Virus record (IMG/VR): IMGVR_UViG_3300044806_000197
Coordinates: 1-37,685 of that record
DNA: 37,685 nt
Strand: one strand, 5' to 3'
From: a virus
Lineage: Duplodnaviria > Caudoviricetes
In this document: piece by piece, positions 3,945-21,807 of the stretch
Layout: each line of letters opens with the position of its first letter
Position numbering within the stretch: the first letter of the stretch is position 1
Made by a program: the position numbers and the translations under genes
The notes under the pieces: generated by a model
Seen by the model: the letters and a program-made list of their open reading frames with translations, nothing else
What the model was told of the DNA's origin: nothing
Databases searched by the model: none

Positions 3945-5390
3945 TCACAATCCAAACCTCACCGTCGTCGCATTCACGCGGGTTGCGTTGATGGTTGCGC
4001 CGGGATTGCCGCCACCACCACCGCCTCCGTATTCATACGCCCCAATGTCCCAAGTGCTGCCCCGACTCACGCCTAAAATGTCCGTGGTGAAAACCGAACT
4101 GGGATAATCGGTGCCTGTCCCAAGTGTTCCACCACCGGGCGTCGGAGCGTAAACATTCCCAATGGTGTAACCCTGACTGGTTGCTGTTGCCGGAGATTGA
4201 ATTAGCGAGAAGCCCTCCGTGATTGTAACGGTGTTGTTTGTTGTTGCGTCACTAAGTCCAGCTCCGTTTCCGATGACGTGATTGTTGAACGCGACAAGCT
4301 CTGTCAGTCTATTGCCTGCGCCTCGGTTCACAATATGTATGCCACCCCAGTTATCACCATAATTGACAATGGTATTGTTAAAGCAAAACACCGTTCCTCC
4401 AGTGGCGTCATTCGTGCCGCCGTAGGGGTCAATCTCAATCGCCCGCTGGTCAGACATGACCCCATAAAACACATTGTTGTAAACGTAAACCGTGCGGAAG
4501 CAAGGATTGGGGTAGGCCATGTTCGCCCCGCCGTAAATGTCGCGGAATGTCGAATTGCGAATGTAGCCCACCAAATTCGTGAACAGCGATGGCTGTAAAT
4601 AGACACCATTCAAATGGTAGGTGAGGTCAAAGCTAGTAAAGGGATAGGAGATGTTCCACATGGCGTTGGAGTTGTAATCCAAGCAGAACAACACGGCACT
4701 CGAATTGTCATGGATGCGACTGTTTTGCACGGTGCCGACGCGCCGAATCGCCACCCCGTTCCAGCGGTTCGTATTGGCGGAATTTTCAATCTCGCAATCC
4801 GTCACCAGTGAAGTCGCTTCTTCATCGTTGCCATAGCTGAAAAAGATTCCCCCGTGGGCATCATCCGTGGCAATCGCTTCATCCAGTCTCCAACTGTGAA
4901 TATAACAGTTGGAAATGGTCAAATAGCTGGCGGTGCCGCCCGCGATGAGGCCCGCCCCGAAATTTGCAGAACTTGTGTGGCGCTTAATTTCCAGCCCGTC
5001 CAGGATGAGGTTGCCGCTCACCGACGCCAAATTAATCAAGGCCGCATTGGTGATATATTCACCATCGAACACCGGGCGAGTCCACGCGCCGCCGCTATAC
5101 CAATTATTTGTCATGCCGTAATAGTCGCGGTTGCCAGAAGTGCCGGTGGCGGCCAGGGTGAGCGGAAACGCAGCCTTCGGCCAAGTCACTCCGCCTTTGA
5201 AAATGAAACGATCGCCCGCCGCGTGCGAATAACTCCCCGTCCAGCCGTTCATGTATGGATGCCGCTGCCACGCCGCACCCGTGCTGGTGCCCGCATTGGC
5301 GTCCGCCCCGCCGCTGTAATCAATGTAATACGTCGCGGCATAAGCGCCAGTTACCAGCAGGTAGAGCAGAATAGAAGCGTTTCGTATCAT
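3945..5390 (-). CDS. Signal-peptide protein with right-handed beta-helix (pectin-lyase-like) and C-terminal DIGAYEY motif
   Basis: MIRNASILLYLLVTGAYA-ATYYID..G.DANAGTS..AAW; repeats such as NSRIHDN, YNNVFY, FNNTIVN; TDILGVSRGSTWDIGAYEY resembles choice-of-anchor Q. Confidence 0.8.
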   Translation of the reverse strand: MIRNASILLYLLVTGAYAATYYIDYSGGADANAGTSTGAAWQRHPYMNGWTGSYSHAAGDRFIFKGGVTWPKAAFPLTLAATGTSGNRDYYGMTNNWYSGGAWTRPVFDGEYITNAALINLASVSGNLILDGLEIKRHTSSANFGAGLIAGGTASYLTISNCYIHSWRLDEAIATDDAHGGIFFSYGNDEEATSLVTDCEIENSANTNRWNGVAIRRVGTVQNSRIHDNSSAVLFCLDYNSNAMWNISYPFTSFDLTYHLNGVYLQPSLFTNLVGYIRNSTFRDIYGGANMAYPNPCFRTVYVYNNVFYGVMSDQRAIEIDPYGGTNDATGGTVFCFNNTIVNYGDNWGGIHIVNRGAGNRLTELVAFNNHVIGNGAGLSDATTNNTVTITEGFSLIQSPATATSQGYTIGNVYAPTPGGGTLGTGTDYPSSVFTTDILGVSRGSTWDIGAYEYGGGGGGGNPGATINATRVNATTVRFGL

Positions 5391-6148
5391 TGTGGGTCAG
5401 CGTAAATTGCCGCAACCGAACCAGAATAATCTCCGGCATACACTCGGAAATCGTCCAACCTGCCGTTGTAGAATAAATCGTTCGATGCTCGTGCGCCGAC
5501 ATATAAAACATATGTTGCGAATGTTCTTGCCACACCCTTGGTATCAGTTCCTAGCGTTAGCGTCTGCTCGCTGCCATCTAGCCACGCCCTCACGTCACCA
5601 TTTGCGGATGAGTTGTCCAGCAAGACTAGGTAGTGATGCCATGCTCCTGTTGCTGGAATCGTCATGGCTTCAATCCTGTTGCCGGATGCGTTGTCCATGA
5701 GCCGAAGGTTAAGCACTCCCGCATCAATAAAGGCAGCGAAGCCATCTGGATTTGAGTTTACACTTTCGCTCGACTCAAAAATTATCTGCGTCCCAGCCGT
5801 GCTGTCCAGATAAAGCCAAAAGCTGACGGTCAGCTTGTTCGTCCCAAATGCAACCGTGTTGGTCGTCGCGGAGTCGTGGCTTGTGCCGTTAAAATCCAGT
5901 GCCCCGCCGCTGCCGCTCTTTCCTGTCACCCAACTTGCATCCGTAGTGCCGCCGTGCGTGGTGTCCGTGGCCGATGATGCCAGCGCCGTGCCGCTGCCCT
6001 CGTTTAATTTCCACCAGAGCAAATCGGGAGTCGGACTCGACGCCACCGCCTCCACCCTCCGACTCGCACCAATCAACGCCGGGCGCACCCCTTGGCCGAA
6101 ACAGTCAAGCGTCAGTAACAGTCCTAGAATCAGTGGGAAGGTTTTCAT
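5387..6148 (-). CDS. Signal-peptide protein with LamG / concanavalin A-like domain
   Basis: MKTFPLILGLLLTLDCFG-Q; WWKLNEGSG, GALDFNG, TVSFW, WHHY, WLDG, FYNGRLDDFRVY. Confidence 0.85.
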   Translation of the reverse strand: MKTFPLILGLLLTLDCFGQGVRPALIGASRRVEAVASSPTPDLLWWKLNEGSGTALASSATDTTHGGTTDASWVTGKSGSGGALDFNGTSHDSATTNTVAFGTNKLTVSFWLYLDSTAGTQIIFESSESVNSNPDGFAAFIDAGVLNLRLMDNASGNRIEAMTIPATGAWHHYLVLLDNSSANGDVRAWLDGSEQTLTLGTDTKGVARTFATYVLYVGARASNDLFYNGRLDDFRVYAGDYSGSVAAIYADPQ

Positions 6149-9100
6149 TTGCTCCAAGAAAAGATCATGTTGGTGTAAGTTCCACCGCCCGGTTTCCATA
6201 TCAGGCTGATGGTCGTCAGTGTGCCGTTGGTGAACGTGCGAGAGTCAAGGTGGTCGCTGGTATAAATGTTTGGGTGATTGGTGAATGTCACATCACCCGT
6301 CGCAAGCACCGTTAGTTCTGCGTATTGCTTGGCTGTATTGGGTGGGTCGCCATCAACAACGATGCCGGGTATTCCGCCAGTGACCGTGCCGAGCGAAATG
6401 TCGTAATTGTTGTTCATCGTAATATCGGTGTTGATGGTGTAAGCGTTTGTCCCTACTGCTAGGCCATATACAGTTAAGCTATCCATCTGCACGTCGCCAA
6501 TAACGAGCGTTCCGCTCCTGTTGTTTGTCACAATGTCGCTACCTGTGGCCGTCACAATTTCCGCAATCGTATCCCACTCCGTGTCGCGTGTGATGGTGGA
6601 TGCAATGCGGGCGTCGGCTACTGTGCCCACCGTGATCGCACTGCCGTTCAAGTTGTTCGTCGCGTGGGCGAGTTGAGCAGTAGTGACATCTCCTGCACTT
6701 GCTGTTACCCACTTTAAGCGATTCCCAGTGCGACTCATCACCATCCCATCCGATGCCGTAGCGTTGTTGGTGGCTAAAGTGGGATTACCCGTGTGCAATT
6801 CTATCGCAGGCCCACCAAACCCGACTGCGGATATTACTGGAATGGAGAATGTAATTGCTTCGTCAGTGCTCTGCCAATCGTCACCATCGTAACGGGCTAT
6901 TTCAGTGCCCGTGCTTTCATTGTAAAGAAACCCGGAAGGACCAACGTAAATGTCTTTATTGGTCAGATTGTTTGGAATCCGAGCTTCCTCAAGTGTTCCC
7001 GACGAGAAGAACGCCGTTGCGCTGTCGCCGGTTTGGGCCTGACCTGCGTTGGCTGCGTAGGTGATCGTGATGTCATCCGGGATGCGAGCATCTGCGATGT
7101 TTCCGACAAGGTTGGTCGCGTTCAGATTCGTGGCCAAACCAGCATCCCAATTTGTCACGGCGACAAAGTTCGTCACATACATCGTTGTGACATTCACGGT
7201 TGCCGCACTCAGCGTTCCTGTCGTGCTGATGTAACTCGCATTGGTGATGCCAAAATTGTTCATGTTCAAGTCGTTGGTTGCGGGGTTTTGCATACCCGTT
7301 CCGCCGCCACCCAACTGAGTGAAGTAGTTCGTCACGTCATCCCATGAATTGATTACGTTCGCACCCAAAGCAAAGTTGCTGGCCTTGACTGTGCCCGTGC
7401 CGTTCGTCATTCCAGACAGCAACGTGAACAACGCCGCTTGATTGGTCTGTTGAGCCGTGATCGCCAAGATGCCGGTTGCATTGGTCAAAGGCGCATTCAC
7501 AATCAGCATTTGAGCTTGGTTCGTTTGCTGCGCGGTGATCGCTCGGATGTTCGTCGCATTGGTGAGGTCAGTTACGTTCGTCACTTGAGAATAGGGTATG
7601 GCCGTCTGGCCAATGACAATCTTCACCAGTCCAGCGTTGTTCGAGCTACCCGCCAGCGAAATGTATGCGCCTGAGTTGACCTGCAAGTTTGTTGAAGCCG
7701 TGGAAAGGTTGACGTTGTTCGTCCCGATGGTCGTAACGGCATTGGTCGCACTCCCGCCCGCGCCAAGCGCCAGATCGTCCACCTTCTGAGCAACCTCTTG
7801 GATGGTATCGTCCCCGGTCGTGAGGTTTCCGTTAAACCCGGAGGCGTCCAAAGTGAGTGACCCGCCCGGTCCAGTGAATCCGGTGGCGGTGACTGTGCCT
7901 ACCACATCAACCGCAGTCAATGGATCAAGTGTTCCCACTCCCAATCGGCCTTGGGTAAGAATTGTTCCGTTAGTTGTTACTCTGAAATTATCATTCGTTC
8001 CAACGGTCAAAAGCGTCCCGACGTATGGAGTCAGATCACCTATCGACAGCGTACCGTTCCGCATCAAGACGTTCTGGGTTTCATGGTATCCCTCAAAAAC
8101 CGGAAGATAATTTGTGCCATTCCCGTTGAACAAACCCCAATATGGTGCAGACTCGTCCCAAATATCGAGTTTTACTCCATAGCCAGTATTAGCCCGCACA
8201 CCAACACCGCCCGAGAAGTGAGTCGGCGCATCGTTTGACCACGCTGTTTTAATCAAATCCACTTCGCTCGATGACACTGTGCTTACTAAAGCGGGGAGAT
8301 TTACTGAACCAAAACCCATGGCCGGGATGGATGAGTTGTTGAGAACAAGGCGAGTTGGGTTGTTTGAAATCAGCAGCGACCATCCTTGCATGTTTGTTCC
8401 AAAAGTATCATCAACCCGCGAATTGAGCAGTGAAAGATTGTCGCCACCAATAACAGTGATTGCATTCAATGAGTTGCTTTTGGGCAAGACATAGATTTGA
8501 GCCGTTGAGTGGAATGTGTTGGTAAATACGATTCCATCCAAAGTGTTTTGCTCGCACCCTCCAACAAAATCAGAATCGTAAAGATCAAGATAATATCCGT
8601 TGGCATTGGCATCCGACGCCATTCCTGAAAGACTGGAATAAATCCAAGACCCGCGCATCCCGTATCCACCGCTGCCACGAAAATAACAGGAGCGCAACGT
8701 CGCTGCATTGTTGGGCCAGATTGCCCACAGCCCATCGGAAACACTGTTGATGATGTAGCAGTCCTCAAGAACGGCATTGATAGTGAAAGCCATAACGATC
8801 CCGCGATACGCATTGAACGTGGTTAAGCCTTTCAACACTGGGGTAATGGCGTTCGTTCCAACCAAATCGAATGCTGCGGTATTTGATCCGCCAAAAGTGC
8901 TATAAGTAACGATTAGGTTTTCAAAGCCGAAGAAGTTGTCGATTCCAGTCAGAACTTCGACAATTCGGAATGTGCTGTTTGTTCCGGTATTCCAGATCAT
9001 CACCGAGCCATGAGAGTCGCCCCGGACTTGTGTGCCGTTCTTCACCAGCAGTGTATCACTGACAGCGTATTTTCCGGGCGGGAAATACACCAGAGAGCCT

Positions 9101-9717
9101 ACCGGCAATGATTCATAACCATCACCGACCGGAACGCTATCTAATGCATTCTGAATCGCAACCGTATCATCCAACCCATCATCGGGAATCGCCCCCCAAA
9201 ACCGCACATTGCTCTTGTCCCAAACATTGCTCGCACTCACCAGCGAACCATTCGTCAGGCCGAACGAGTTCAGGTTGCCGTCCGCCGTGAGGGGGAAGCC
9301 GCTGCCGGAGCCGCCATTTGTAATACCAGCCAGCAAAGCATCAACTTGGGTTGAAGTATAAAAGCTAGTGTTGTAGTTCGTGGAATTGATCAAGCCAGCC
9401 ACATCTAAAACCGCGTTGGTGTCAAATACTCCAAATGGAAAACTCCGTCCAGGACTTCCAGCTACGTCCAACCGATAAGACCCGGCCAAGACATTCGAGA
9501 AGTAAGCAATCCCGGAAGTGTCTGTGATCTTCGCAACCGAATCTCCAGCAATCAGCCACGGCGAAGCCACAACCGGGCCGGCAGTCGTCAAGGTAAGCCG
9601 CACCTGGCGCTTTTGGCTTGGCTCGCTGGTGAAGTTACGAGAATTGACTCGTAACGTCGTGGCGGTGGCATTCATCGACAGCAATAGGCAACCTAGCAGG
9701 GTAAGGATAGTTTTCAT
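6145..9717 (-). CDS. 1190-aa tail fibre / tailspike-like protein with signal peptide and pectate-lyase-3-type beta-helix
   Basis: MKTILTLLGCLLLSMNATA; NVRFWGAIPDDGLDDTVAIQNALD..VYFPPGKY; fibre-type repeats (IADARIP, LEEARIP, VADARIA; RLGVGT.DP). Confidence 0.8.
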   Translation of the reverse strand: MKTILTLLGCLLLSMNATATTLRVNSRNFTSEPSQKRQVRLTLTTAGPVVASPWLIAGDSVAKITDTSGIAYFSNVLAGSYRLDVAGSPGRSFPFGVFDTNAVLDVAGLINSTNYNTSFYTSTQVDALLAGITNGGSGSGFPLTADGNLNSFGLTNGSLVSASNVWDKSNVRFWGAIPDDGLDDTVAIQNALDSVPVGDGYESLPVGSLVYFPPGKYAVSDTLLVKNGTQVRGDSHGSVMIWNTGTNSTFRIVEVLTGIDNFFGFENLIVTYSTFGGSNTAAFDLVGTNAITPVLKGLTTFNAYRGIVMAFTINAVLEDCYIINSVSDGLWAIWPNNAATLRSCYFRGSGGYGMRGSWIYSSLSGMASDANANGYYLDLYDSDFVGGCEQNTLDGIVFTNTFHSTAQIYVLPKSNSLNAITVIGGDNLSLLNSRVDDTFGTNMQGWSLLISNNPTRLVLNNSSIPAMGFGSVNLPALVSTVSSSEVDLIKTAWSNDAPTHFSGGVGVRANTGYGVKLDIWDESAPYWGLFNGNGTNYLPVFEGYHETQNVLMRNGTLSIGDLTPYVGTLLTVGTNDNFRVTTNGTILTQGRLGVGTLDPLTAVDVVGTVTATGFTGPGGSLTLDASGFNGNLTTGDDTIQEVAQKVDDLALGAGGSATNAVTTIGTNNVNLSTASTNLQVNSGAYISLAGSSNNAGLVKIVIGQTAIPYSQVTNVTDLTNATNIRAITAQQTNQAQMLIVNAPLTNATGILAITAQQTNQAALFTLLSGMTNGTGTVKASNFALGANVINSWDDVTNYFTQLGGGGTGMQNPATNDLNMNNFGITNASYISTTGTLSAATVNVTTMYVTNFVAVTNWDAGLATNLNATNLVGNIADARIPDDITITYAANAGQAQTGDSATAFFSSGTLEEARIPNNLTNKDIYVGPSGFLYNESTGTEIARYDGDDWQSTDEAITFSIPVISAVGFGGPAIELHTGNPTLATNNATASDGMVMSRTGNRLKWVTASAGDVTTAQLAHATNNLNGSAITVGTVADARIASTITRDTEWDTIAEIVTATGSDIVTNNRSGTLVIGDVQMDSLTVYGLAVGTNAYTINTDITMNNNYDISLGTVTGGIPGIVVDGDPPNTAKQYAELTVLATGDVTFTNHPNIYTSDHLDSRTFTNGTLTTISLIWKPGGGTYTNMIFSWSK

Positions 9718-10130
9718 GTAGTTGGGGCGGATGTGGTCAGTTCGTCGGTTGCAAATGTGAAAGCATGTTGAACAGTTACGCCGCGCACGACTGGCGCATA
9801 GGATACTATCACGGCATTGGGATAGTAATGCACGGTTGCATTTTGTTCAACCTTTAGATGCTTCTTGACCGTGAAATTGTTCCGCAACGTATAGATCGAA
9901 GACAGGGCTAGGGCGGTGGTTGAATAGGGGATTGATACAACGATCTGTAGCTGCACCCCAATGTTCCCCCGGATTGCCTTGAAGGTATTAGCCCCGCCCG
10001 CCAGAGGCTCGATTTGATTCAGTGGTTGAAACGCTGGCGCGAACAGTTCAAACAGTCCGGTGCGGTCTGATTCGTCGCCCAAAACGGTATAGCTAGGGCT
10101 GGCTGCGGGAGTGGCATAGCTGACTTTCAT
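9714..10130 (-). CDS. Putative minor tail protein
   Basis: 138 aa, beta-rich, between tail tube and fibre; function from position only. Confidence 0.5.
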   Translation of the reverse strand: MKVSYATPAASPSYTVLGDESDRTGLFELFAPAFQPLNQIEPLAGGANTFKAIRGNIGVQLQIVVSIPYSTTALALSSIYTLRNNFTVKKHLKVEQNATVHYYPNAVIVSYAPVVRGVTVQHAFTFATDELTTSAPTT

Positions 10131-10136: not shown

Positions 10137-11138
10137 TCATGCGAACACCGCGAGCGCGCCCGCGACCCCCGCCGTGAAGCGTTTGGTAGATACGAATTGC
10201 AACTCGCCATTCCGCAAATTCTCATGGCCAAACCTGAACCCAGGCGAACGGATCACAGGCTTGTTCAGGGTCACAGGCACACTTGAATCACTTGGGTCAA
10301 CAATGGTCAGACTGTGCGTAGCCTGTTGCGCGGTCTGTAATGAACCCTGCGCCCACGATGCTCCATTGTCCCCGCCGATGCCGAGTAGATTGATGATCTG
10401 GCTCATGGTTGGTCCGGTTGGAACACAAGATGCCACGATCTCCATTCCGACAAGCTCAAAGTCCACGGTCAATCCCTGAATCTGTCGCTCTCTCCATTGC
10501 GGGTTAAAGCTGACAGTCCAGCCACCCTCTGGCCAAATCTCTGTGAAGCCAGTCTGTGCCCCGAGCGCGCCCTTGTAACGTCGTTGCAGGTAGGAAGGAA
10601 CACCAAGGAACGCCAGACCCGCATCGGCCTGGGCCTCGGCCACGTCGAGCAATGAATTAGCCAGACCAAGATTGATGTCTGCTGATGTTGTCTTGCAGAT
10701 GCCTGTGATGGTGCATTGCCCGAAGATCGGCTTGTCGGCTGAGAAGGTAAGCGAAGGCGGACTGGTGATGATCGCGTTATTGATCGTCACCAACTCGCCA
10801 TTGCTTGACCAGATTTGCAAGGTCAACTCACTCCCACCGCTGCCAAGATATTGTGTCCCGTAAAAACCATTTGTGAAGATGGATGGAATCAAAGCTGTCA
10901 TGGAATTGACCCTCGACACCGCAGCAGGCCCTGCACTTACAACCGCGTGCGGTGTGAAGCTCACCGTCACCTTGGGATTGATTATGAGCCTGTCCACTGC
11001 CGGCCCATGGAATGAGGACATAACATCCACCGCGCCGTCATCTATCTGTAACGAAATATCGTCAGGGGTGTAATAGGTGATCGAGTTATAGACCAGCTTG
11101 GCCGGCCCTTTGACGATGAGTGAGCGTGTGAGTCCCAT
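10137..11138 (-). CDS. Putative major tail (tube) protein
   Basis: 333 aa, beta-rich, N-terminal IVKGPAKLVY motif, follows neck genes. Confidence 0.6.
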   Translation of the reverse strand: MGLTRSLIVKGPAKLVYNSITYYTPDDISLQIDDGAVDVMSSFHGPAVDRLIINPKVTVSFTPHAVVSAGPAAVSRVNSMTALIPSIFTNGFYGTQYLGSGGSELTLQIWSSNGELVTINNAIITSPPSLTFSADKPIFGQCTITGICKTTSADINLGLANSLLDVAEAQADAGLAFLGVPSYLQRRYKGALGAQTGFTEIWPEGGWTVSFNPQWRERQIQGLTVDFELVGMEIVASCVPTGPTMSQIINLLGIGGDNGASWAQGSLQTAQQATHSLTIVDPSDSSVPVTLNKPVIRSPGFRFGHENLRNGELQFVSTKRFTAGVAGALAVFA

Positions 11139-11142
11139 ATTT

Positions 11143-11880
11143 TTATGTGGTTGTGGCTTGGATCATGTGCGACGGGGTTGACCCGTCCAGATAAGCGGCG
11201 GCGTTGATGACCGTCCCAACATCCACCGTGAAGCTGCCAGAATACAATACCGCGACTGGATTGCTTCGGCCTGGGAAGCTCTCGTCTAGGGTGTAGTATA
11301 TCTGCGCTCCTGAAGTCAGGCAAGTCAAGGTGATCACGCCGCTGTTCTCGGATATGACCGGCTGTTGCACCTTGACCGTCTGCGACCGCGATAAACGCAG
11401 CCGAAATTTGACCCGATAACCGTCAAGCGGTTGAAAGTCTTTGGCCGGGGACATAGCCTGACGGTCACAGAATATCTGACCAAACCCTTCCCACTGTTGC
11501 CAGTGCAGAGCATCCATGATGATCTGACAGATTTGATCGGCGGGAAGTCCAGTCCCTTCGCTGGGGGAATTGTTAGTGATCCTATCCTCTAGGACAAGAA
11601 GCTCGATTGTAATGTCACCCTCAGGGCCGGGAAGGTTTGGATGACCTACTTCAAATCCAGGCTTCTCTACAATGATGCCCGCGCCTACGCGCCCGCTGCG
11701 TGGGGTGATGTAAGCTAGAACCTCGGCGGCTAAAGTCTCATCGGGTAGCCGTGACTCGTCAGCTAAGAGCCTGTCCCGCGTAACGATGTTCACGTTGTCG
11801 AGCGCGTTGTAGCTGCTCAGATAATGCGCGACGAAGTTCTGAAACTTTACAAAGTCGGTGATCATTGGCCACCTCCCCAA
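11143..11880 (-). CDS. Putative tail terminator with C-terminal Fn3-associated / chitobiase C-terminal-like Ig domain
   Basis: Position; C-terminus ITLTCLTSGAQIYYTLDESFP..LYSGSFTV..TVINAAAY. Confidence 0.65.
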   Translation of the reverse strand: MGRWPMITDFVKFQNFVAHYLSSYNALDNVNIVTRDRLLADESRLPDETLAAEVLAYITPRSGRVGAGIIVEKPGFEVGHPNLPGPEGDITIELLVLEDRITNNSPSEGTGLPADQICQIIMDALHWQQWEGFGQIFCDRQAMSPAKDFQPLDGYRVKFRLRLSRSQTVKVQQPVISENSGVITLTCLTSGAQIYYTLDESFPGRSNPVAVLYSGSFTVDVGTVINAAAYLDGSTPSHMIQATTT

Positions 11881-12461
11881 TAGTTCACGATGGCTTCTGA
11901 GATTCCCTTTCCAACGTCATCAATCTTTTCAGCTATGCCGGTTCGGAATGGTGCTCGTTCGGGCATGACTATCTCGAATCGCTTCCCGCCTGCGTATGGG
12001 ACATTCAAGAACCGCTTGTGTTTGAGTTCGCCTTTCTTGTTCACCTTTTTACTAGCGAACCTGGCCACTCCTTTTAGCAGATTGCCTTTCGCATCAGTCC
12101 GGAGATGAACACTCCCGGCCAACTGCAAGCGTTTGATCGTGCCGCCGTATTCGTGGATACGGGCATACTTCACGTTACTGCCAATGTGCGATTCAACAGT
12201 GGTAGCAGTTCCTTCCGTTGTGGCATAAACAGAATTTGCTAGGCGACTCGTTACCCTTCCGAGTTCGTGGTTGGATGGGTCGGACGGGTGAGGCTGCGCG
12301 TTCAGATGTTGCGTTATGATGTGAGTCCTCAACCCGTCGTCACCAAGCATTTGATTATTCATCTCCTTGGTAATCGCCCGCATGAGCGCAGGCTGATTAC
12401 CCAGCCGCATCAAGAGCGCGGTGGCTTCGTTGCTGATTTTGACTTGAACGGCAACGCTCAT
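11862..12461 (-). CDS. Virion morphogenesis / tail completion protein (Mu gpG / HK97 gp10-like)
   Basis: TSRLANS..IGSNVKYARIHEYGG..MPERAPF. Confidence 0.8.
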   Translation of the reverse strand: MSVAVQVKISNEATALLMRLGNQPALMRAITKEMNNQMLGDDGLRTHIITQHLNAQPHPSDPSNHELGRVTSRLANSVYATTEGTATTVESHIGSNVKYARIHEYGGTIKRLQLAGSVHLRTDAKGNLLKGVARFASKKVNKKGELKHKRFLNVPYAGGKRFEIVMPERAPFRTGIAEKIDDVGKGISEAIVNYWGGGQ

Positions 12462-13266: not shown

Positions 13267-14756
13267 TTGTATTCTCCGGTTATGTTCCTAATCAATCCGT
13301 TGGTTGTCGTCAAAGTTGCTGAAACGGGCGCTCCCTTCGCTGCCTGCCAGATGCCCGCCGAGTTCTGTGCTGTCACGCTGGCCGCCCCGACAATGAACGT
13401 TCCCGTATTACCCGCGAGATAAACGGAGTCACCAGCGACCAACGTGACGCCGTTAGCGCCTGAATTGGTGACACTCAGCATCTCGTAATTAGCAGGCGTG
13501 ACCGTCACAGTTCCAGAAAAGCAAGCTGGCTCGGCTGTTACGGGAAAGATGTAAACCGTATCCGCTGCGGCAATCGAAGTCGCCACGTCGCAGATGAATG
13601 ACTTGTCCAGAGCGTTAGCAGCAAAGGTCGTGGTCAAGGCTGTCGCGCTGGCCTCGTAAAGAACCTGGCCCGGATAAACCGCAACCCCAAATGTATGGCC
13701 CAAGGTGATGCTCTTGGTTGATTCTACCGTGTTCGTTGAAACAAGTTTGTTCTGCCAAGGGCTTTGGCCTGTCGGGTTCACAACGATATTTGTTCCGTCG
13801 CCCATCGCAGTGAGTGCATCGAGTAGGATGGTTGAGTCCCCTGCCTTGACCGGCTTTACCAAGGTGCGAGCGCCAGAGATAACCGTCACACGATCCCCAA
13901 CCGCAGTCGCAAACCCTGGCGCGACGGTCAAGGTGATGTTCGTGGTAGAAACCCCGGAAGTATCAATGATTCGCACCGCCGACAGTCCTCTGGTAGTTGA
14001 GATTAAAACAATGTCCGCCGCATCGAATCCGTTCGTTGTGGCCACGCACAGACTTAGACCGTCGTATGCGGTTATGTCCGCAATCGTGGTTGTGTTTGTC
14101 TTGGTGTAATAAACCGAGTCGCCAATCGCAGCCGGAGTCTCGGCCAAGTCTCTCAATGAATAACGGAAACGGTCTGCCGTCGCCACGCTGGACACGGTGT
14201 TCGTCAGAAGCCCTTTACCTCCCTGATTCAGAACCACAATGTCGCTACCTGCCAATCCAGTAACGCTGTCCACGAACAGAACCGTAGCCGAATCACTCGC
14301 AACGGCTTGCACCGTGTAAGGAACGGTCAATCTTTCCCGCACCTTATCCCCAACGGCAAGATTCGTCCCAATCACGTTCTGCACGGTGATGGTCTTGTTC
14401 GTCTGGTAAACATTCGTCTGCACAGTCGCTGCCCCTACCGCTCCCGCCGCGCCTTGAACCAGCAGAACATCATTGCTGGAGAACGTCACCCCCGTCTTGG
14501 CAAAGACCAGGTTGCTTGACGTGGACGTGGCCGATTTCAGCAATGGCAATCGAGTCGTGCCGGATTTGAGCGTCAGCTTGTCCGCTCCCTGAGAGCCGGT
14601 AAGATCGTAAGATACAATCCGATTGTTGTAGGCTTCCGAGCCTGAGAAATACACGACTGGATTATTTGTGCCAGTGCTGGATTGATTGACAAGGCCCGGC
14701 TGTGCCGATACGCTGACGGCCACCAAGAGGGCCAGACTTAGAAGCAGGTTTTTCAT
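13263..14756 (-). CDS. 497-aa Thr/Val-rich beta protein with signal peptide; candidate capsid decoration or head fibre
   Basis: MKNLLLSLALLVAVSVSA-Q; repeated (AV/AI/VA)GD.V.. units; directly after the capsid gene. Confidence 0.65.
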   Translation of the reverse strand: MKNLLLSLALLVAVSVSAQPGLVNQSSTGTNNPVVYFSGSEAYNNRIVSYDLTGSQGADKLTLKSGTTRLPLLKSATSTSSNLVFAKTGVTFSSNDVLLVQGAAGAVGAATVQTNVYQTNKTITVQNVIGTNLAVGDKVRERLTVPYTVQAVASDSATVLFVDSVTGLAGSDIVVLNQGGKGLLTNTVSSVATADRFRYSLRDLAETPAAIGDSVYYTKTNTTTIADITAYDGLSLCVATTNGFDAADIVLISTTRGLSAVRIIDTSGVSTTNITLTVAPGFATAVGDRVTVISGARTLVKPVKAGDSTILLDALTAMGDGTNIVVNPTGQSPWQNKLVSTNTVESTKSITLGHTFGVAVYPGQVLYEASATALTTTFAANALDKSFICDVATSIAAADTVYIFPVTAEPACFSGTVTVTPANYEMLSVTNSGANGVTLVAGDSVYLAGNTGTFIVGAASVTAQNSAGIWQAAKGAPVSATLTTTNGLIRNITGEYK

Positions 14757-14781: not shown

Positions 14782-14815
14782 CAACAAAGGGGTGGGACAT
14801 TATGCGTCCCACCCC
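14782..14815 (-). terminator. Probable intrinsic terminator / attenuator after the major capsid gene
   Basis: Minus strand GGGGTGGGAC-GCATAAT-GTCCCACCCC then TTTGTTG; perfect 10-bp stem, weak U tract. Confidence 0.6.
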
Positions 14816-14832: not shown

Positions 14833-16155
14833 TTAACCGAGGGTCAACACCGTGAGCGGCTTGAAGCCAGCCGGGTTGCCTGTGGGAACGCGGGTCTTGA
14901 TGCCAGCCCGCATGATGGTGCGGAAGCCAATCTGGTTTTCCGCGAACTTGATGTGCTCGCTCTGTGCAAGCTCAATGTCAGAACGGATACCAACGACTTG
15001 CGACATCGGATCACCGAAGACCGCAACCTTCGCGCCCGTGCTGTCCGTGGACGGGGCCGCCGTCACCGGCACAACCGGATAACCGAAGATGCTGCCGATG
15101 GTCGAGGACGGGGTTTCCAGAGCAGTCTGGAAGATCGGACGCCCGTTGCTGTCCACGATGAGCGCGACCTTAGCCCGAATCTGCGGGTGCATCCACCATT
15201 TGCAGGCCCGCTTGAGGACGCCAACCGATACGGTGGTGAGACACTTTTCCCAATCCGCCAGGGTGGTGGTTGCCACCGTAGTATGACCTGTCGCCGTGCT
15301 CGCCAATCCAGTGTGAACCGAGGCCACAAGCTGGAAGATACCGTATTGACCAGCATCCGTCGCATCTGCCGTGCCGTCGCCGTTGAACGCCGTCTCATCG
15401 AGCAACTGAGCAACCGACATGGCCAAGTCACGAACGATGACCGAGGACATATCAATCGTGCTGTCCGCCAACTGTTCGCGTGAAGCGTAGAGGATCACGC
15501 CCAGGGTCTGAATGGCCAATGTAACCGCCGAGCCAGTGTAATCAGCAGCGGCAATCGCCGTGCCTTCCGTAGCCGCAGCACCAGCGCCATACCAAGCCGC
15601 TGCCGGGCGAGCCGAGATAAGCGGTAGGCTGTTCGTGCGAGCACCAACCCGCATCACGTTCAGGGTGTTGTAGTCGCCGTATTCCGCGAGCACAGAATAC
15701 ATTTCGGTCATGTATTCGGTTGGGATGAGAGCCGAACCGAGCGAGCTGTCCACGCCGGTCAAAGCCTTTTCCAAGTGTTCCGGCAACTTCGCGTTCGGAA
15801 AAGCCAAGCGGCGAGCCAGACCGTTGAAGAAATTCCGTTTCTCCGGGTCACTGAGGAAGCGTTCGACGGGATCGCCAAACGACAAACGCGCTTCCCGGCG
15901 CGTGAGTGCATCAAGAGACGCCAAACTTTTTGTGATGGCCTTCACTTCCGAATCCAGACCATTCGCCGTGTTCTTCAGCTTGGTCAGGTCTTCCATACCC
16001 GCTTTGATTTCCTTGGGCCAACGGGATTGATCGGCAATGATCTGTTCCGCAGGGGTCAGGCTCTTGAGCGTGGCGATTTCTTTCTGGGCGGCTTCGAGTC
16101 CGCCGAGCACGGTGTTCTGGAAATCCAGTTCCGTCATGGGTTCATTCAATTTCAT
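14833..16155 (-). CDS. Major capsid protein, HK97 fold
   Basis: Coiled-coil delta domain; LIPTEY, SREQLADS, FNGDGT, WWMHP, DSNGRPIF, IFGYPVV, VFGD, FAENQIGFR. Confidence 0.95.
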   Translation of the reverse strand: MKLNEPMTELDFQNTVLGGLEAAQKEIATLKSLTPAEQIIADQSRWPKEIKAGMEDLTKLKNTANGLDSEVKAITKSLASLDALTRREARLSFGDPVERFLSDPEKRNFFNGLARRLAFPNAKLPEHLEKALTGVDSSLGSALIPTEYMTEMYSVLAEYGDYNTLNVMRVGARTNSLPLISARPAAAWYGAGAAATEGTAIAAADYTGSAVTLAIQTLGVILYASREQLADSTIDMSSVIVRDLAMSVAQLLDETAFNGDGTADATDAGQYGIFQLVASVHTGLASTATGHTTVATTTLADWEKCLTTVSVGVLKRACKWWMHPQIRAKVALIVDSNGRPIFQTALETPSSTIGSIFGYPVVPVTAAPSTDSTGAKVAVFGDPMSQVVGIRSDIELAQSEHIKFAENQIGFRTIMRAGIKTRVPTGNPAGFKPLTVLTLG

Positions 16156-16835
16156 ATTGTTTTGATAGTTCGTTGCAGTTTTTCAAGGAAGACCACTCGC
16201 TGACGGGCGCGTTGTTCATTGGCTTGCTCGCCCTGGATGGCCGATGAACCGCTGTTGCGTTTGGCATACTCCCCTGAAATCAAATCAAGGTCCGCGTCAC
16301 TCAAGACCCCGGCCTTGTAGCTCTTGGCCAGTGCGTTTGGGTTCGCGCCAATGACCACGGCTGAAAGTTCAATCTGCTCTTGCTCGGTGTAGATCGCCCG
16401 CACCGGAGCGTTGTCGGGCATCCCCATGTCCTTCAGATTCTCATTGAAAGACTTGGGGTCTGAGTGCGGGGTTAATGTCTTGATCGGCCAGAATCCAACT
16501 GACACAGCTTTTAGATAGCCCGCCTCGGTCATCTTCCAACCAAGCTGGGCCACCTTGTTCTCAGCCACGTCAATCGCCCACTTGACCGTCTCCACGAGTT
16601 GCTTTCCAACAACCCGGAAGTCTATAACCTTGCCAAGCATGTTCTCAATCCGGCTGTATTCGTGAGAGTCAACAAATGGGGCGTTCTTGGCGAAGTGGTT
16701 GAAGCGCCAGCCATTGGCCCGTATCACTTCGTGGTAAGAGTCCAAGGTTTCATCGGAGGCGACGTATTCCACCAGCCCTTGCTTGGAATCCAGCACCCTG
16801 ATTTCAGGGTGTATGGTGCGAATGAGTTTTTGCAT
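16152..16835 (-). CDS. Prohead protease (HK97 type)
   Basis: ASDETLDSYHEVI..GW, SH, GYLKAVSVGF, ELSAVVIGANPNAL; start moved to MQKLIR. Confidence 0.9.
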   Translation of the reverse strand: MQKLIRTIHPEIRVLDSKQGLVEYVASDETLDSYHEVIRANGWRFNHFAKNAPFVDSHEYSRIENMLGKVIDFRVVGKQLVETVKWAIDVAENKVAQLGWKMTEAGYLKAVSVGFWPIKTLTPHSDPKSFNENLKDMGMPDNAPVRAIYTEQEQIELSAVVIGANPNALAKSYKAGVLSDADLDLISGEYAKRNSGSSAIQGEQANEQRARQRVVFLEKLQRTIKTI

Positions 16836-16903
16836 ATCAGAGCCTAGTACATTCAATGTCTAACACATTGGACACGTTATGTCCAACGCTAGATAGAAAA
16901 ATA

Positions 16904-19078
16904 TCAAACATCGGTTGCGACCTTGGTTGCGACACATAGGCAAAAGCAGTTGATGACATTCCACGGCTGGCCGTTCACGTCACTTGGATGCCGGATGTAA
17001 TCAACTTCGCCCGTGTCTGGATTCTCCACGATGAACTTGTCTTGAAATGGTATTGTCTCGCCCTCCATCGCTTGGTGCGCCGGCCTGACGTTGTTGTTGC
17101 GACTGGTCAACCAGCGTTTTCCGCTGACCCCTACTTGTTCCATTGCGGCGTGGTTTGCTGCGCCATAGGCTGCGCTTGTCTCGGTCTGTGCTATCACGCG
17201 GGCGCGACCCTTGGAGATGTCGTTAAACTCAGACCTGACCCGCTTGGCGATGTCCGCCATGCTATCACCTTCCGTGATGCCTTCCTGTATTGCACCGGAT
17301 ACCTGCTTGAATATGTCGGTTGGGACGTTTGAGAGCTTATTTTCACGATCACTGAAGAACGCGAGCGCCTTTGGGTTGGGCATTGTCCACGGGTCTTGGA
17401 TGCCAAGCGAGGCCAGGACCTGCTCGCCACCAGCTTGCAGCGCGTCGGCTGCGACCGCCTTCATCGCGGAATTGAATGACGACGTGAAATTGTTCAGATC
17501 GAACATGTAATGGTCGGCCATGGCCTTGCCAGCAATGCCCTTCGCAGCGGACGCAATCAACTTGCCCAACACCGTGCGCCTGGCTTCCATCAAAACCCGG
17601 TTGAATTTGGATTCGTAAGCCCGGAGCGTGGCTCGGCGCGGTGCCATCATGGTCTTCCATAGTCGGGTATCCTTTGAGTCGGTTGCTTTGATTTCCAGAT
17701 CGTTCCAGTCAACAGAACACGAACAAGGCGCGGACACTGGTCGGCTAAGTTTCCGCCTCTTGAACGCTTCCTCGACAATCTGAGCCGGGGTCGGCGGGGT
17801 CTGGTCTTCACTCAGTGCCGGGTCTTGCGTCGAGTCTGCTAAAGGGTCATAGGGTGATGCACTGAACGGCATAAACCCAACATCGCTCCCGGCGTATTGT
17901 GGCAAGTCCAGATTCAGGTAGTCACTCACTTCATCCATCGGCATGCCCGTGTTCCAGAGCTTGATCGCAGCATCAATCCGTTCCCGTCTGACTTGTTGCA
18001 TTGTGGAATGATCATCCCAATCAAGCTCGCCTTTGACGGGTTGGTTGATGATCTTCTCGGAGATTCGAGACAAGGTTGCGGTGATCTTGCACCCTAACGG
18101 TTTGCAAGTTTCCTCAATAAGAATGTATCGGTCACTTGCTGCCCCAACTGAGTAGGACGCGACTGGATCAAAGAAGCTAGGCGGGACACCAAACGCAACA
18201 GCAATCTCTTGCCTGGCTGCGGTGCGCTGGGCCACGAACGCCGCATCCACGGCCCGCACCTTAGGGTCTTCAATCGTGATGTCTCCTGTCAGGAACACGG
18301 GCCGGAAGATGCCACGTTGCTGCGCTGCCCGCTTCTCTCGCAACTGCGAAATGATTTGCTCTCGTTGTCTCTGGTCAAGTAAGCCCTGCTTGGCCACAAC
18401 AAACACCCCTTGATCGCCATTAGCCTCTGCCGTGTTCTTGGCATATACGCCAGCGGCGTAATCCCCCTCAGCCGCAATCATGGCCGCTTGTAACGGGGCA
18501 AGCCCTCGATAGTCGTTATACGGATTGAACAGCTTCATCTGGTGAACCTGCTCAAGTGGGAAGTTGTGTTTCATCCCTGCCCCGTCTGTCAGTTCCCAAC
18601 CCATCAAGCGGATACCAGACACCAAGGGCCGCATCCTATCGGGTCTGGCTATGATTAACGGAGTGAACCCGCCAAACTCAGCCACCTCGGGGAATGGGAC
18701 TGACCAGGTATCGTCGCGTAACAGGAACGCTTCACCGGATAGTTGAAGCCACTTGGCGCAGATTTCCAGAAAGTCAGATTGGGATATGCGTGTCCCGTCC
18801 ACGTTCAAGGCCGGCGCTCGCCAAAACTCGTCAAGCTGCGGGTTCTCGATTTCTTCATCCTTCATGTCCAACCAACACAACTCAACCGCAGAGATTGGCC
18901 CGGCCACCTTATTGATCGCAGCATAAACCCAAGCGCTGTTTGCGTATGGATTCTCTAGTCCGTTAGGCTGTCCTTCGATGGACGGGATATGATCGAACCA
19001 AGCGGCGGGCAGTCCAGTCCCCTTGATAGCATGGGACACAGCTTGTCTTACCCTAAGCAAAAAAGAGGGAGGCTTCAT
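16904..19078 (-). CDS. Portal protein fused to a Mu gpF-like head morphogenesis domain
   Basis: VYAAINKVA, LSGEAF, RPDRM, RGLAPL, EIAVAFGVPP; C-terminal RARVIAQTET..KRWLT..VRPAH..INCFC. Confidence 0.9.
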   Translation of the reverse strand: MKPPSFLLRVRQAVSHAIKGTGLPAAWFDHIPSIEGQPNGLENPYANSAWVYAAINKVAGPISAVELCWLDMKDEEIENPQLDEFWRAPALNVDGTRISQSDFLEICAKWLQLSGEAFLLRDDTWSVPFPEVAEFGGFTPLIIARPDRMRPLVSGIRLMGWELTDGAGMKHNFPLEQVHQMKLFNPYNDYRGLAPLQAAMIAAEGDYAAGVYAKNTAEANGDQGVFVVAKQGLLDQRQREQIISQLREKRAAQQRGIFRPVFLTGDITIEDPKVRAVDAAFVAQRTAARQEIAVAFGVPPSFFDPVASYSVGAASDRYILIEETCKPLGCKITATLSRISEKIINQPVKGELDWDDHSTMQQVRRERIDAAIKLWNTGMPMDEVSDYLNLDLPQYAGSDVGFMPFSASPYDPLADSTQDPALSEDQTPPTPAQIVEEAFKRRKLSRPVSAPCSCSVDWNDLEIKATDSKDTRLWKTMMAPRRATLRAYESKFNRVLMEARRTVLGKLIASAAKGIAGKAMADHYMFDLNNFTSSFNSAMKAVAADALQAGGEQVLASLGIQDPWTMPNPKALAFFSDRENKLSNVPTDIFKQVSGAIQEGITEGDSMADIAKRVRSEFNDISKGRARVIAQTETSAAYGAANHAAMEQVGVSGKRWLTSRNNNVRPAHQAMEGETIPFQDKFIVENPDTGEVDYIRHPSDVNGQPWNVINCFCLCVATKVATDV

Positions 19079-20316
19079 ATTAGCTCACACGTAGGGGCAT
19101 TATGAATCGTCAGCATCTTCATGCCTGAAGTAGCAGCGTCAACGATGTCATCATGTGCACCATCGGGGAAAGATGCCAACTCGTCAAGAAATACTTTATT
19201 CCAGTCCCCTCTAACGATAGCGAACTTGCCTTGCTCGGCTCTGGCCAGTAGTGGAAGGGCACGATTGATCTTGTCAGTGCTGACTTGGATTGGGAAGAAA
19301 GCGTAGCCAGATAGCATAGGGTCAGCGAGTAGGGTCTGAAGCATACCGACCTGAGCCGCTACCACCTCAATACCAGCCCTAACGTCTGGCCCGTCCAGTC
19401 TTGCGGTATGAGCTATCAATCTGACCACGGCTGGCCATTCCATCCGCCCGTGAATCAAATCTGCTAGGATCACTGTCCCATCGTCAGCAATGCCCACTCT
19501 AGCCCCGGCTGTAAAGTCGCTTGTGGTCTTGACCGTAAAGGCCAAGTCCCAGGCCCGCACCCATTGAATACCGGTCGGTTCAGAATCGAGGATACGAACA
19601 TCCTCCCGCTTGAACAGTGCCCCGGCCAACTGGACAAACTCGGCGTCTATTTCTTGGCGGGCCACAAGTGCAGGCATGTCCAGCTTTAGAGCCTCGATCT
19701 CATCTGGTTCAATGGTTGGGTTGTCTTTGGTTGAGAAGTGGAATGAGGCCCAATCCTTTTCCCCATCCCGGCCACGATTGAACAGGGTATTGAAGAAGTT
19801 GTATCCCTTAGGGGTGGAGATGAACCATGCATCACCCTTCCTGTCCATGAGTGAAGGTCTGACGCATTGCTCCCATATCTCTTGAATCTTCTGGACGTGG
19901 GCCGCTTCATCAAATACCACGAAGTCAATTCCTTCCCCTCGTAGAGAGTCTGGTTCTTCTGCTGACCTGAATTGAAGCCAAGCCCCGCCAATGGCTGAGA
20001 AGTCGAACTGCCGACGCTGTAAGTGCATGGTCACGCCTGGAATCTGCTGGGCTAGGCTGACGCATGTATTCCAACCTGATTGGAACGAATCAGATGCGTA
20101 GGACGGAGCAAGCCAGCGACACTTCAAACCGCGACTTGCCCGGATGAAAGCCTCACTGACCCCGAGGATGCCTTTTCCGAATCTTCTTCCCGCCGCAATA
20201 ACTTTGAACCTAGCTCCGCCTTCCAAGACAGATATCTGGGCGGGGTGTAAGCGCGGAAGTCCTATCAGCCTAATTCCAGTTGCTATGTTGTGGTCGTTGG
20301 CGTATGCTTTACGCAT
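19075..20316 (-). CDS. terL: Terminase large subunit
   Basis: HPAQ, Walker A AAGRRFGK, LRGEG..VVFDEAA, ISTPKG, RQEIDAEF, RAWDLA, FPDGAHDDIVDA; start moved to ATG 20316. Confidence 0.93.
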   Translation of the reverse strand: MRKAYANDHNIATGIRLIGLPRLHPAQISVLEGGARFKVIAAGRRFGKGILGVSEAFIRASRGLKCRWLAPSYASDSFQSGWNTCVSLAQQIPGVTMHLQRRQFDFSAIGGAWLQFRSAEEPDSLRGEGIDFVVFDEAAHVQKIQEIWEQCVRPSLMDRKGDAWFISTPKGYNFFNTLFNRGRDGEKDWASFHFSTKDNPTIEPDEIEALKLDMPALVARQEIDAEFVQLAGALFKREDVRILDSEPTGIQWVRAWDLAFTVKTTSDFTAGARVGIADDGTVILADLIHGRMEWPAVVRLIAHTARLDGPDVRAGIEVVAAQVGMLQTLLADPMLSGYAFFPIQVSTDKINRALPLLARAEQGKFAIVRGDWNKVFLDELASFPDGAHDDIVDAATSGMKMLTIHNAPTCELI

Positions 20317-20911
20317 GATAATTAGAACATGCCAGCAATGCAAAAAAGGGTATTCAACATTTCCGTCTATACGTAAGCACTTCTGTTCTAGGGAGTGCTG
20401 CCACGAATCGAAAAAGCGCGGAAGTATTATTCCATGTGAGCAATGCAAGAAGCCAATTTACAGTCGCCCGCACCACTCTAAAAAGTTCTGCTCTAAAAGC
20501 TGTGCCATAACGGCTAGAAACCTGACTGACAAGAACCCCGCTTTTCACAGAGATATTTCTGGAAGCCTTAACCCAATGTTTGGGAAAGGTAGGTTTGGGA
20601 TTGCCAATCCGATGTTTGGGAAAAAAGGAGAAAAGTGTCACCACTGGAAAGGTGGAACAAGGAAAAGGCCTGACGGGTATGTCAGAATCGTTGCTCCCGA
20701 CAGTCATCCCAGCCCGTCCGAAATCAAGCGCGGAACGAAATACATTCTTGAACATCGCCTTGTAATGGAAAAGAAGATTGGTCGCTATTTGACCAAGGAA
20801 GAGGTTGTTCATCATATTGATTCCAATCCGTCTAACAACTCTCCTGATAACTTAATGCTGTTCGCAAACAGCGCAGAGCATACAAAACACCACAACGTGA
20901 AAGTCATTTAA
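20315..20911 (+). CDS. HNH endonuclease with Zn-binding and NUMOD3-like repeats, antisense within the packaging operon
   Basis: 2x CxxC...FCSxxC, 2x NPMFGK, HWKGG, EHRLVME..EVVHHIDSNPSNNSPDNL. Confidence 0.88.
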   Translation: MIIRTCQQCKKGYSTFPSIRKHFCSRECCHESKKRGSIIPCEQCKKPIYSRPHHSKKFCSKSCAITARNLTDKNPAFHRDISGSLNPMFGKGRFGIANPMFGKKGEKCHHWKGGTRKRPDGYVRIVAPDSHPSPSEIKRGTKYILEHRLVMEKKIGRYLTKEEVVHHIDSNPSNNSPDNLMLFANSAEHTKHHNVKVI

Positions 20912-21367: not shown

Positions 21368-21369
21368 GA

Positions 21370-21807
21370 TCAGTTCCTTGGGTATGTCTTGGTCACGCCA
21401 TACGTCCATGCGTTTGTGATTTCGTTTGTGACGCTGGACACGATCTGGAACGGCTTGAGATAGGCAATGCCGTCTCCTGCCGAGAGGTTGGTAAAGAGCG
21501 AGAACGGGTTTGTGCCGTTCACTGTGCCGGCCAAGGTGAACGTCGCAGCCGTGTCAAAGTTCGTTGCGTCCGCGCTGGCCTTGAATGTGAATGTGAGCGT
21601 GTTGGTTGAGATGTTCGTGCCTTGGCCGGTGGCAACGATGGAAAAGGTTTTGTAGCGTGTCAGGTCTAGGTAGTTCGTGCCGATATACGTGCTCGTGGAT
21701 GATGCGGCGATGGTGTTCGTGAAGAACAGATTCGTTGAGCGGGTGTAGGACTGCGCCAATGCCGCGAAGCTGGCCAGCATAATTGCAAGACTAAGAAAGT
21801 ATTTCAT
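21370..21807 (-). CDS. 145-aa signal-peptide beta-sandwich protein, very Thr-Asn rich
   Basis: MKYFLSLAIMLASFAALA-Q; start moved to ATG 21807. Confidence 0.75.
   Translation of the reverse strand: MKYFLSLAIMLASFAALAQSYTRSTNLFFTNTIAASSTSTYIGTNYLDLTRYKTFSIVATGQGTNISTNTLTFTFKASADATNFDTAATFTLAGTVNGTNPFSLFTNLSAGDGIAYLKPFQIVSSVTNEITNAWTYGVTKTYPRN

Follow-up and report, generated by a model that had tools for sequence, protein, structure and literature searches.

We propose that five late accessory proteins of a tailed phage are exported, processed, possibly modified at Thr-Asn (TN) dipeptides and then added to finished particles near lysis, and we put the probability of this reading at about two in three. 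The window, meaning the whole 37,685-nt stretch analysed, is an HK97-type, probably long-tailed phage (Caudoviricetes) as judged from its protein families: capsid, protease, portal and terminase matches (PF05065, PF04860, PF03237/PF17289, phrog_10, phrog_2) revealed the head module, and no sheath was matched among the 55 proteins scanned. Among the tail genes, only the neck gene had a family match (PF05069, phrog_26), and tube, distal tail, hub and tape measure are positional names. The related prophages fell within one Verrucomicrobiota order, and the host is likely a member of the Verrucomicrobia. Searches by tblastn with the capsid, jelly roll or fibre found no cultured relative, and the accessible part of the one paper found on a cultured Verrucomicrobia phage, P8625, reports no signal peptides (PMC4642752). 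The relevant features are as follows.

2869..3231, minus strand: 120-aa predicted lipoprotein (lipobox Cys) in the lysis-slot region, a putative sixth exported product
3945..5390, minus strand: 481-aa right-handed beta-helix, Pel9A/polysaccharide-lyase-like (feature and structure neighbours PF13229/PF22842), Sec-type leader at about 5337-5390
5387..6148, minus strand: 253-aa LamG/ConA-like lectin domain protein (PF13385, E 3e-16; length from the ATG at 6148), leader at about 6095-6148, predicted Gln at +1
6145..9717, minus strand: 1190-aa fibre-like protein with 36 TN, leader at about 9661-9717, conserved N-terminal beta domain at 9316-9654
9714..10130, minus strand: 138-aa leaderless gene in the distal-tail slot, named by position (no family match), lacking TN; its stop overlaps the fibre start
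10137..13084, minus strand: leaderless tail tube slot (333 aa), terminator slot (245 aa), neck/tail completion (199 aa) and adaptor slot (208 aa)
13081..13266, minus strand: 61-aa small head-region protein
13263..14756, minus strand: 497-aa all-beta repeat protein after the capsid gene, leader at about 14703-14756, predicted Gln at +1, 12 TN
14789..14815, minus strand: terminator-like hairpin (11 bp, 8 GC) between the capsid and 497-aa genes, from a consensus scan only
14833..20448, minus strand: leaderless HK97-type head module (major capsid, protease, portal fused to MuF, terminase large subunit)
21370..21807, minus strand: 145-aa single jelly roll, cement/decoration-like, leader at about 21754-21807, predicted Gln at +1, 10 TN

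We take the 61-aa protein to be akin to lambda FI-type proteins, a label without Pfam support; a small domain like it is fused ahead of the leader in some homologues. The lipoprotein, the TN motif, the Gln at +1 and the host group were absent from the first-pass annotation.

That annotation had placed the five N-termini at 5390, 6148, 9717, 14756 and 21807 on the minus strand, where we found them. Leaders were called with our own heuristic (basic n-region, hydrophobic run, small-x-small site), which was written after the five had been seen and is not SignalP. It flagged 6 of the 56 window ORFs, namely the five and the lipoprotein, and none of the core head and tail proteins. False positives amounted to 30 of 2205 ORFs (1.4%) in shuffled window DNA, and none of the 17 structural proteins of phage phi14:2 was flagged. 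Among the core-gene slots of relatives, 7 of 211 were flagged; five of these flags came from internal ATGs, one of them counted twice, and another from a capsid protein whose N-terminus is truly hydrophobic. Both the heuristic and the alignment columns displayed Sec/signal peptidase I (SPI) features, with a basic n-region, a hydrophobic h-region and small residues at -3 and -1; Gln was predicted at +1 in three of the five proteins. The genes had been described as mostly translationally coupled. This holds tightly for the three whose starts overlap the upstream stop as ATGA (9717, 6148 and 5390), but the 497-aa gene begins 76 nt past the capsid stop, behind the hairpin. In-frame stops lie three codons (5390) and four codons (14756) upstream of the starts. 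Alternative ATGs at codon 15 of the fibre gene and codon 10 of the 145-aa gene were unconserved in homologues. A promoter scan of the window stayed at chance level (15 vs 13.4).

Homologues in relatives keep the leaders, a comparison the first-pass annotation had already singled out, and this applies to the 497-aa, 145-aa and fibre families alike. The leader of the 497-aa protein was kept in 7 of 7 homologues down to 27-28% identity, one of them N-truncated and one with the leader internal after a fused domain; all 14 matches to the fibre N-domain have a hydrophobic leader ahead of it. Leaders diverge faster than mature parts: across 13 close homologues of the 145-aa protein, all flagged by the heuristic (4 of 17 were skipped by the site pattern), leader identity was 32% and mature identity 67%. 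In the top 150 members of that family, Ala occupied -3 in 73% and -1 in 89%, and Gln occupied +1 in 91% (A-x-A|Q). Moreover, a profile of the mature part alone gave 43 matches in the fetched loci, duplicates included, and a hydrophobic leader preceded every one. In relative L003, the gene in the post-fibre (LamG) slot bears a twin-arginine (Tat-type) leader. Together, the conservation, the A-x-A|Q sites, the Sec/Tat swap and a secretome-type TN motif strongly support the prediction that the leaders behave as real export signals.

The TN motif was counted 66 times in the five leader proteins against 26.4 expected, and 5 times against about 13 in 18 leaderless window proteins. The excess resides in the fibre, the 497-aa protein and the 145-aa protein; the other two are not enriched, the 481-aa beta-helix having 6 against 4.4 expected. 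Relatives displayed the same division, with 387 TN against 142.5 in 39 leader genes and 160 against 181 in 211 core-gene slots. In the host order, 53 leader proteins held 262 against 110 (228 of the 262 from 2 of 11 genomes) and 167 cytoplasmic proteins held 103 against 105, whereas 26 leader proteins from other genomes of the phylum held 16 against 21. TN was the top dipeptide of the sampled host-order secreted proteins, unlike in other Verrucomicrobiota. Pro followed TN twice against 14.7 expected, and this avoidance, together with the secretome enrichment, suggests a periplasmic modification. The classical N-x-S/T sequon showed no significant excess in the window proteins or in host leader proteins (201 vs 194), which rules it out as the source of the composition. 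Bacteroidota O-glycosylation uses the motif D-(S/T)-(A/I/L/V/M/T); the D-(S/T) motif was likewise ruled out by its count in host-order leader proteins (77 vs 82.6). Of 101 order genomes, which are incomplete, only 3 had a classical N-oligosaccharyltransferase (PF02516, STT3 family) above the cut-off, and a PglB-type enzyme was therefore rejected as the usual host transferase. Glutaminyl cyclase PF05096 passed in 4 of 81 order genomes. A literature search outside subscription journals, with one query flooded by unrelated matches, found no paper on the TN motif. Our best guess, held at somewhat under even odds, is N-glycosylation on the Asn.

Export and addition to the virion could also be real with TN being a structural preference of this lineage's extracellular beta proteins, an account that we regard as possible though doubtful. 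Many TN lie in predicted strands, the Asn being in loops for 4 of 12 in the 497-aa model and 7 of 10 in the 145-aa model; no candidate transferase was found; and structure alone could explain the three TN positions conserved at 77-91% in the jelly-roll family. Nevertheless, the excess spans unrelated folds, Pro is avoided at +1, and the excess is absent from the leader proteins of other Verrucomicrobiota, of phi10:1 and of relative L029 (jelly roll 1 vs 2.0; tail-slot genes 0-2).

Sec-routed phage proteins include the coat proteins of filamentous phages, SAR and secreted endolysins, spanins, T4 RI and lambda Lom. These are membrane-assembled inovirus coats or lysis and envelope proteins, unlike the outer parts of a tailed virion that is built in the cytoplasm, and no paper on exported tailed-phage virion parts was found in a literature search outside subscription journals. 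For the proteins described here, the structural role proposed by the first-pass annotation is supported indirectly, by a cement-like jelly roll next to unrelated capsid genes, by the fibre slot and by MS/MS-annotated proteins of phage phi10:1. The export part of that reading drew strong comparative support; display on the cell surface stays an alternative.

The 145-aa model (pLDDT 83) is a single jelly roll lacking a Pfam match, and its fold matches were middling and non-specific, the best being PBSX XepA (Z 9.7). Like the BPP-1 cement protein Bbp16 (PDB 3j4u chain H, PF21190), it is a single jelly roll of about 125 residues encoded near the capsid gene; it differs in its leader, conserved TN sites and basic C-terminal KPxR tail, and the similarity is weak (VIA Z 7.3; profile E 1.4 to PF21190; Atlas neighbour at 0.90, with the family on 21% of members). 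In relatives the jelly-roll gene usually lies directly after the capsid gene, and in 8 of 12 fetched prophage loci a capsid gene of another family, recognised by PHROG, precedes it by one or two genes. The post-capsid gene was absent from 7 of 31 dereplicated relatives, and the capsid tree (without L040, a fragment) required at least four forced changes of it, not clustered relative to shuffles; given this repeated gain and loss, it was rejected as a clade marker. Foldseek with the 497-aa model (pLDDT 82.6) returned no convincing match (TM <= 0.21).

Long proteins occupy the fibre slot after the distal-tail-slot gene in the relatives, with a common N-terminal domain and variable C-termini. Residues 170-356 of the window fibre match a pectate-lyase-like beta-helix (PF12708, E 3e-12), its N-domain family gave weak CarboxypepD_reg matches in 2 of 12, and sequence searches matched neither the fibre nor the distal-tail-slot protein to a solved structure. 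In lambda, according to the accessible part of the source, the small N-terminal beta domain of Stf collars the tube/distal-tail junction and Stf is a dispensable adsorption aid (PMC12617516). Both fibres have a small N-terminal beta domain, without significant homology (hhalign E 0.065 over 41 columns); unlike the window fibre, Stf has no leader (the L130 translation begins inside the domain).

Cellulophaga phages phi10:1 (gp091-gp095, KC821618) and phi18:3 (gp087, KC821620) resemble the window phage in being HK97-type with leader-bearing fibre-block genes and a leaderless core. In phi10:1, gp091-094, annotated as structural from MS/MS of virion preparations, which can include co-purifying proteins, all bear leaders with Gln at +1, and a leader-bearing pectate lyase follows. 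Unlike the window phage, phi10:1 has a Bacteroidota host, no TN excess and no post-capsid leader-bearing jelly roll that we saw; its proteins are not homologous to the five (best E 0.05), and the record notes shown are silent on leaders.

It is less likely that the proteins are exported but never join virions, instead working, like lambda Lom, at the infected cell or in the medium, where they might mask receptors, exclude superinfection, or degrade capsule or matrix and so free progeny. Such action, unlikely overall, would concern above all the beta-helix and LamG proteins, which look like secreted bacterial proteins. Lambda lom, too, sits in the tail region, between J and stf. The accessible parts of three papers describe SPI leaders exposing Gln, in genes of P. 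gingivalis prophages and under the Bacteroidetes Q-rule (PMC10367356, PMC5837995, PMC10653852); the prophage genes have no assigned function and are read as host-envelope modifiers (PMC10367356). The window genes differ in being fibre- and cement-like and in carrying TN, and Verrucomicrobia are mentioned 0 times in the accessible text of PMC5837995 and PMC10653852. Against cell-surface action, the jelly roll tracks unrelated capsid families and has few cellular copies (17 of 351 order genomes, 0 of 400 other genomes of the phylum), the long proteins keep the fibre slot with its shared N-terminal domain, phi10:1 offers a precedent, and none of the five has a visible C-terminal membrane anchor, although a released enzyme would need none.

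Far less probable is a tether, whereby the leaders would hold assembly at the inner membrane face until a phage or cytoplasmic protease removed them, the mature parts never crossing. Signal peptides are likewise predicted on the capsid proteins of P. gingivalis phages, according to the accessible part of PMC10367356. The capsid protein itself has a long hydrophobic N-terminus in 6 of 31 relatives, and the hydrophobic segment is internal, after a fused small domain, in 15 of the top 150 jelly-roll homologues. Yet signal-anchor-like leaders behind a short cytoplasmic domain remain cleavable by signal peptidase, and a periplasmic location is indicated by the SPI-typical A-x-A|Q sites, the Tat-type swap and a TN motif specific to the secretome. 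That the N-termini are hydrophobic by chance, or that starts were miscalled, might be argued from the home-made heuristic and the internal ATGs in two leaders, but is scarcely credible against the low shuffle rate, the ATGA coupling and conservation in dozens of relatives.

In the preferred reading of late addition, the five proteins would be exported to the host periplasm by their Sec-type leaders while core head and tail proteins stay leaderless. Signal peptidase I would cut the leaders, pyroglutamate would form at Gln+1 in three of the five, and a host enzyme may modify TN in the periplasm. Lysis would then breach the inner membrane and let the mature parts join finished particles. Such a late step is plausible, since known phages attach decoration proteins and side fibres last and can do without them (T4 Hoc/Soc, lambda Stf). 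Incorporation is more probable for the jelly roll, the 497-aa protein and the fibre; the LamG and beta-helix proteins, for which it is less probable, would attach to the end of the fibre or work unattached. More speculatively, and less likely than not, these phages may route capsid cement and fibres through the periplasm, where an undescribed host system other than PglB would glycosylate TN, yielding virions with a glycan coat that are completed outside the cytoplasm.

The accepted view is that tailed-phage particles are assembled entirely in the cytoplasm. If true, our reading would describe a two-compartment assembly route for a widespread tailed-phage group, one of the five proteins alone comprising 2,029 clusters at 50% identity, with outer parts delivered via Sec. 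It would account for fibres of this kind being overlooked or wrongly annotated as secreted host enzymes, and it would open periplasmic chemistry to phages. Verrucomicrobiota of this kind are abundant in soil and peat; the TN motif points separately to an undescribed modification of their secreted proteins, and phage genes may thereby expose a new bacterial protein-glycosylation pathway with a TN sequon unlike N-x-S/T.

Sec-type leaders were present on the five genes to which the first-pass annotation had assigned them, encoding a 145-aa jelly roll, a 497-aa post-capsid protein, a 1190-aa fibre-like protein, a 253-aa LamG protein and a 481-aa beta-helix. Our heuristic (basic n-region, hydrophobic run, small-x-small site) flagged these five and one lipoprotein among 56 ORFs of the 37.7-kb window. 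In controls, it flagged 30 of 2205 ORFs from shuffled DNA, 0/17 structural proteins of phi14:2 and 7/211 core-gene slots in 31 dereplicated relatives, the last mostly internal ATGs. Three of the five leader genes share an ATGA start/stop overlap with the preceding gene, and in-frame stops lie shortly upstream of two; that the leaders are an artefact is scarcely credible.

Family searches identified an HK97-type head module on the minus strand (terminase, portal-MuF fusion, protease and capsid), accompanied by the following:
Tail part of the window, minus strand: neck, then by position the tube, distal-tail, hub and tape-measure genes.
Gene order is permuted at 21791-26788, where the jelly roll and terminase are preceded by the tape-measure and hub slots and by 94-aa, 437-aa and Cys-bearing 123-aa genes. 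Because the ends share 8 bases (37672-37685 and 1-8) and join into an open frame, the genome may be circularly permuted and near complete, despite a CheckV completeness estimate of 45%. Neither an integrase nor an endolysin was recognised among 55 window proteins scanned. Small membrane-type ORFs and a lipoprotein form a lysis-slot cluster at 2708-3812, adjoining a metallophosphoesterase (1675-2403). No cultured phage matched the window capsid, jelly roll or fibre; related capsids occur in 43 viral loci, in two genomes titled Verrucomicrobiae/Verrucomicrobiota, and in 16/351 genomes (E <= 1e-40) of the Verrucomicrobiota order holding related prophages, which we take to be Limisphaerales (Pedosphaerales), as against 0/400 other genomes drawn from the phylum (E <= 1e-60). 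Prophage L142 of this order encodes a hub 46% identical to that of the window and shares its tail-end block, with the jelly roll as last gene.

The check proposed with the first-pass annotation, namely whether homologues keep the leaders, came out in its favour: the leader was retained in 7/7 homologues of the 497-aa protein, down to 27-28% identity, and a hydrophobic segment stands ahead of the fibre N-domain in 14/14 matches. For the 145-aa protein, 13 close homologues showed 32% identity in the leader versus 67% in the mature part. Among the best 150 of 2,029 jelly-roll clusters, a set biased by a profile that contained the leader, Ala occupied -3 in 73% and -1 in 89%, and Gln +1 in 91%; the heuristic flagged 116 of the 132 short members, and most of the other 16 were N-truncated or carried a leader visible by eye. 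With a profile of the mature part only, which removes the leader-derived bias, all 43 matches in the fetched loci (duplicates included) were preceded by a hydrophobic segment. A flagged gene was among the next few after the distal-tail-slot gene in 13 of the 18 relatives having that gene, and the post-fibre gene of locus L003 bears a twin-arginine leader instead. Of 31 dereplicated loci, 23 have the leader-bearing post-capsid gene, 7 lack it and in 1 it is cut off; mapped on the capsid tree, the gene was gained or lost repeatedly, as expected for an accessory part. By these comparisons, the leaders behave like export signals. The preference for Gln at +1 is reminiscent of the Q-rule of Bacteroidetes, described in a paper whose consulted text does not mention Verrucomicrobia (PMC5837995).

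A small head-region protein is fused in frame before the leader in P0008, P0036, P0050 and 13 others, and in loci L009, L017, L045, L048, L050 and L059; a single polypeptide would thus supply both a jelly roll for export and a membrane-anchored piece on the cytoplasmic side. The fibre ORF at L004:17274-20117 starts with what we take to be a cold-shock-like domain; its fibre N-domain, of the usual type, comes after this and after an internal segment that resembles a leader.

The 145-aa protein was modelled as a single jelly roll, with XepA as top structural match (Z 9.7) and BPP-1 cement at Z 7.3, the latter in weak agreement with profile search (E 1.4) and Atlas. Its gene is uncommon in hosts (17/351 host-order genomes, 0/400 others in the phylum) and lies one to two genes downstream of capsid genes of other PHROG families in 8/12 further fetched loci. 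The 497-aa protein was modelled as an all-beta repeat protein, for which structure searches returned no convincing match, and a terminator-like hairpin between the capsid gene and its own suggests a copy number below that of capsid. The 1190-aa protein has fibre architecture, with a common N-domain and a variable middle bearing a pectate-lyase-like helix; likeness of the N-domain to the lambda Stf collar domain, as given in the consulted portion of PMC12617516, was not significant. The other two leader proteins are a Pel9A-like beta-helix (481 aa) and a LamG domain (253 aa). We consider it unlikely that the exported proteins serve outside the virion, whether at the cell surface or in the medium.

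Counts of the dipeptide Thr-Asn (TN) in the mature parts of the five window proteins total 66, where 26.4 would be expected. The excess is due mainly to the fibre, the 497-aa protein and the 145-aa protein (36 vs 14, 12 vs 4.2 and 10 vs 2.7, respectively), and is not significant in either the beta-helix or the LamG protein; 18 window proteins without leaders contain 5 TN versus ~13 expected. Leader genes of relatives (n=39) contain 387 TN versus 142.5 expected, and core genes of relatives 160 versus 181. TN also ranks first among the enriched dipeptides in soluble host-order proteins with leaders (262 vs 110; 53 proteins, 11 genomes), 228 of the 262 coming from two genomes, and is neutral in cytoplasmic ones (103 vs 105; n=167, after removal of 14 ORFs that began beyond the fetched stretch, 73 TN lying in two of these). 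Elsewhere in the phylum no enrichment was found (16 vs 21; 26 leader proteins, 10 other genomes). Enrichment in secreted proteins (host loci L064-L083 and L126-L127) is a host feature of interest by itself. Pro is depleted after TN (2 vs 14.7 expected in 36 phage proteins chosen for at least three TN; 5 vs 8.9 in host genome G001), and known sequons likewise disfavour Pro after Asn. N-x-S/T motifs were not enriched in window or host leader proteins, nor were D-S/T motifs in the latter, and STT3 exceeded the cut-off in 3/101 host-order genomes. Since the TN excess tracks leader proteins of phages and host order, and Pro is depleted after it, we infer that TN may be the site of some modification of secreted proteins; many TN lie within predicted strands, and a structural preference is a possible alternative. 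Leaders occur without TN excess in locus L029 (4131-11549), probably of another host lineage, where the jelly-roll gene and three genes in tail slots carry them, so export and TN are separable.

Hydrophobic capsid N-termini in 6/31 relatives, and the 15/150 jelly rolls (best 150 of 2,029 clusters) in which the leader is internal, behind a fused small domain, would favour leaders that tether proteins to the membrane without export, which we nonetheless regard as quite improbable. The window capsid has no hydrophobic N-terminal segment. In the six relatives (L003:9830, L009, L012, L034, L042 and L045:9830; 31 dereplicated), major capsid ORFs open on basic residues, and a long hydrophobic segment or hairpin then precedes the scaffold region, an arrangement that suggests membrane-tethered prohead assembly there.

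The leader phenomenon is real and widespread. In our literature search, neither the TN motif nor the export of tailed-virion parts was the subject of any paper found; the nearest published case, in the consulted text of PMC10367356, concerns functionally unassigned Q-rule genes of P. gingivalis prophages. In Cellulophaga phage phi10:1, leaders occur on gp091-094, annotated as structural from MS/MS, and on the next gene, a pectate lyase (5/13 genes examined); phi18:3 has one on gp087 (1/8, gp085-086 being outside or cut by the stretch). Their leader proteins are not homologous to those of the window, and these cultured phages thus offer a precedent for the route rather than proof for the window phage. 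With a probability of roughly two in three, the core head and tail would assemble in the cytoplasm, while accessory parts would be secreted, likely via Sec (or Tat), trimmed of their leaders, possibly modified at TN, and pooled in the periplasm, to bind particles once the inner membrane opens.
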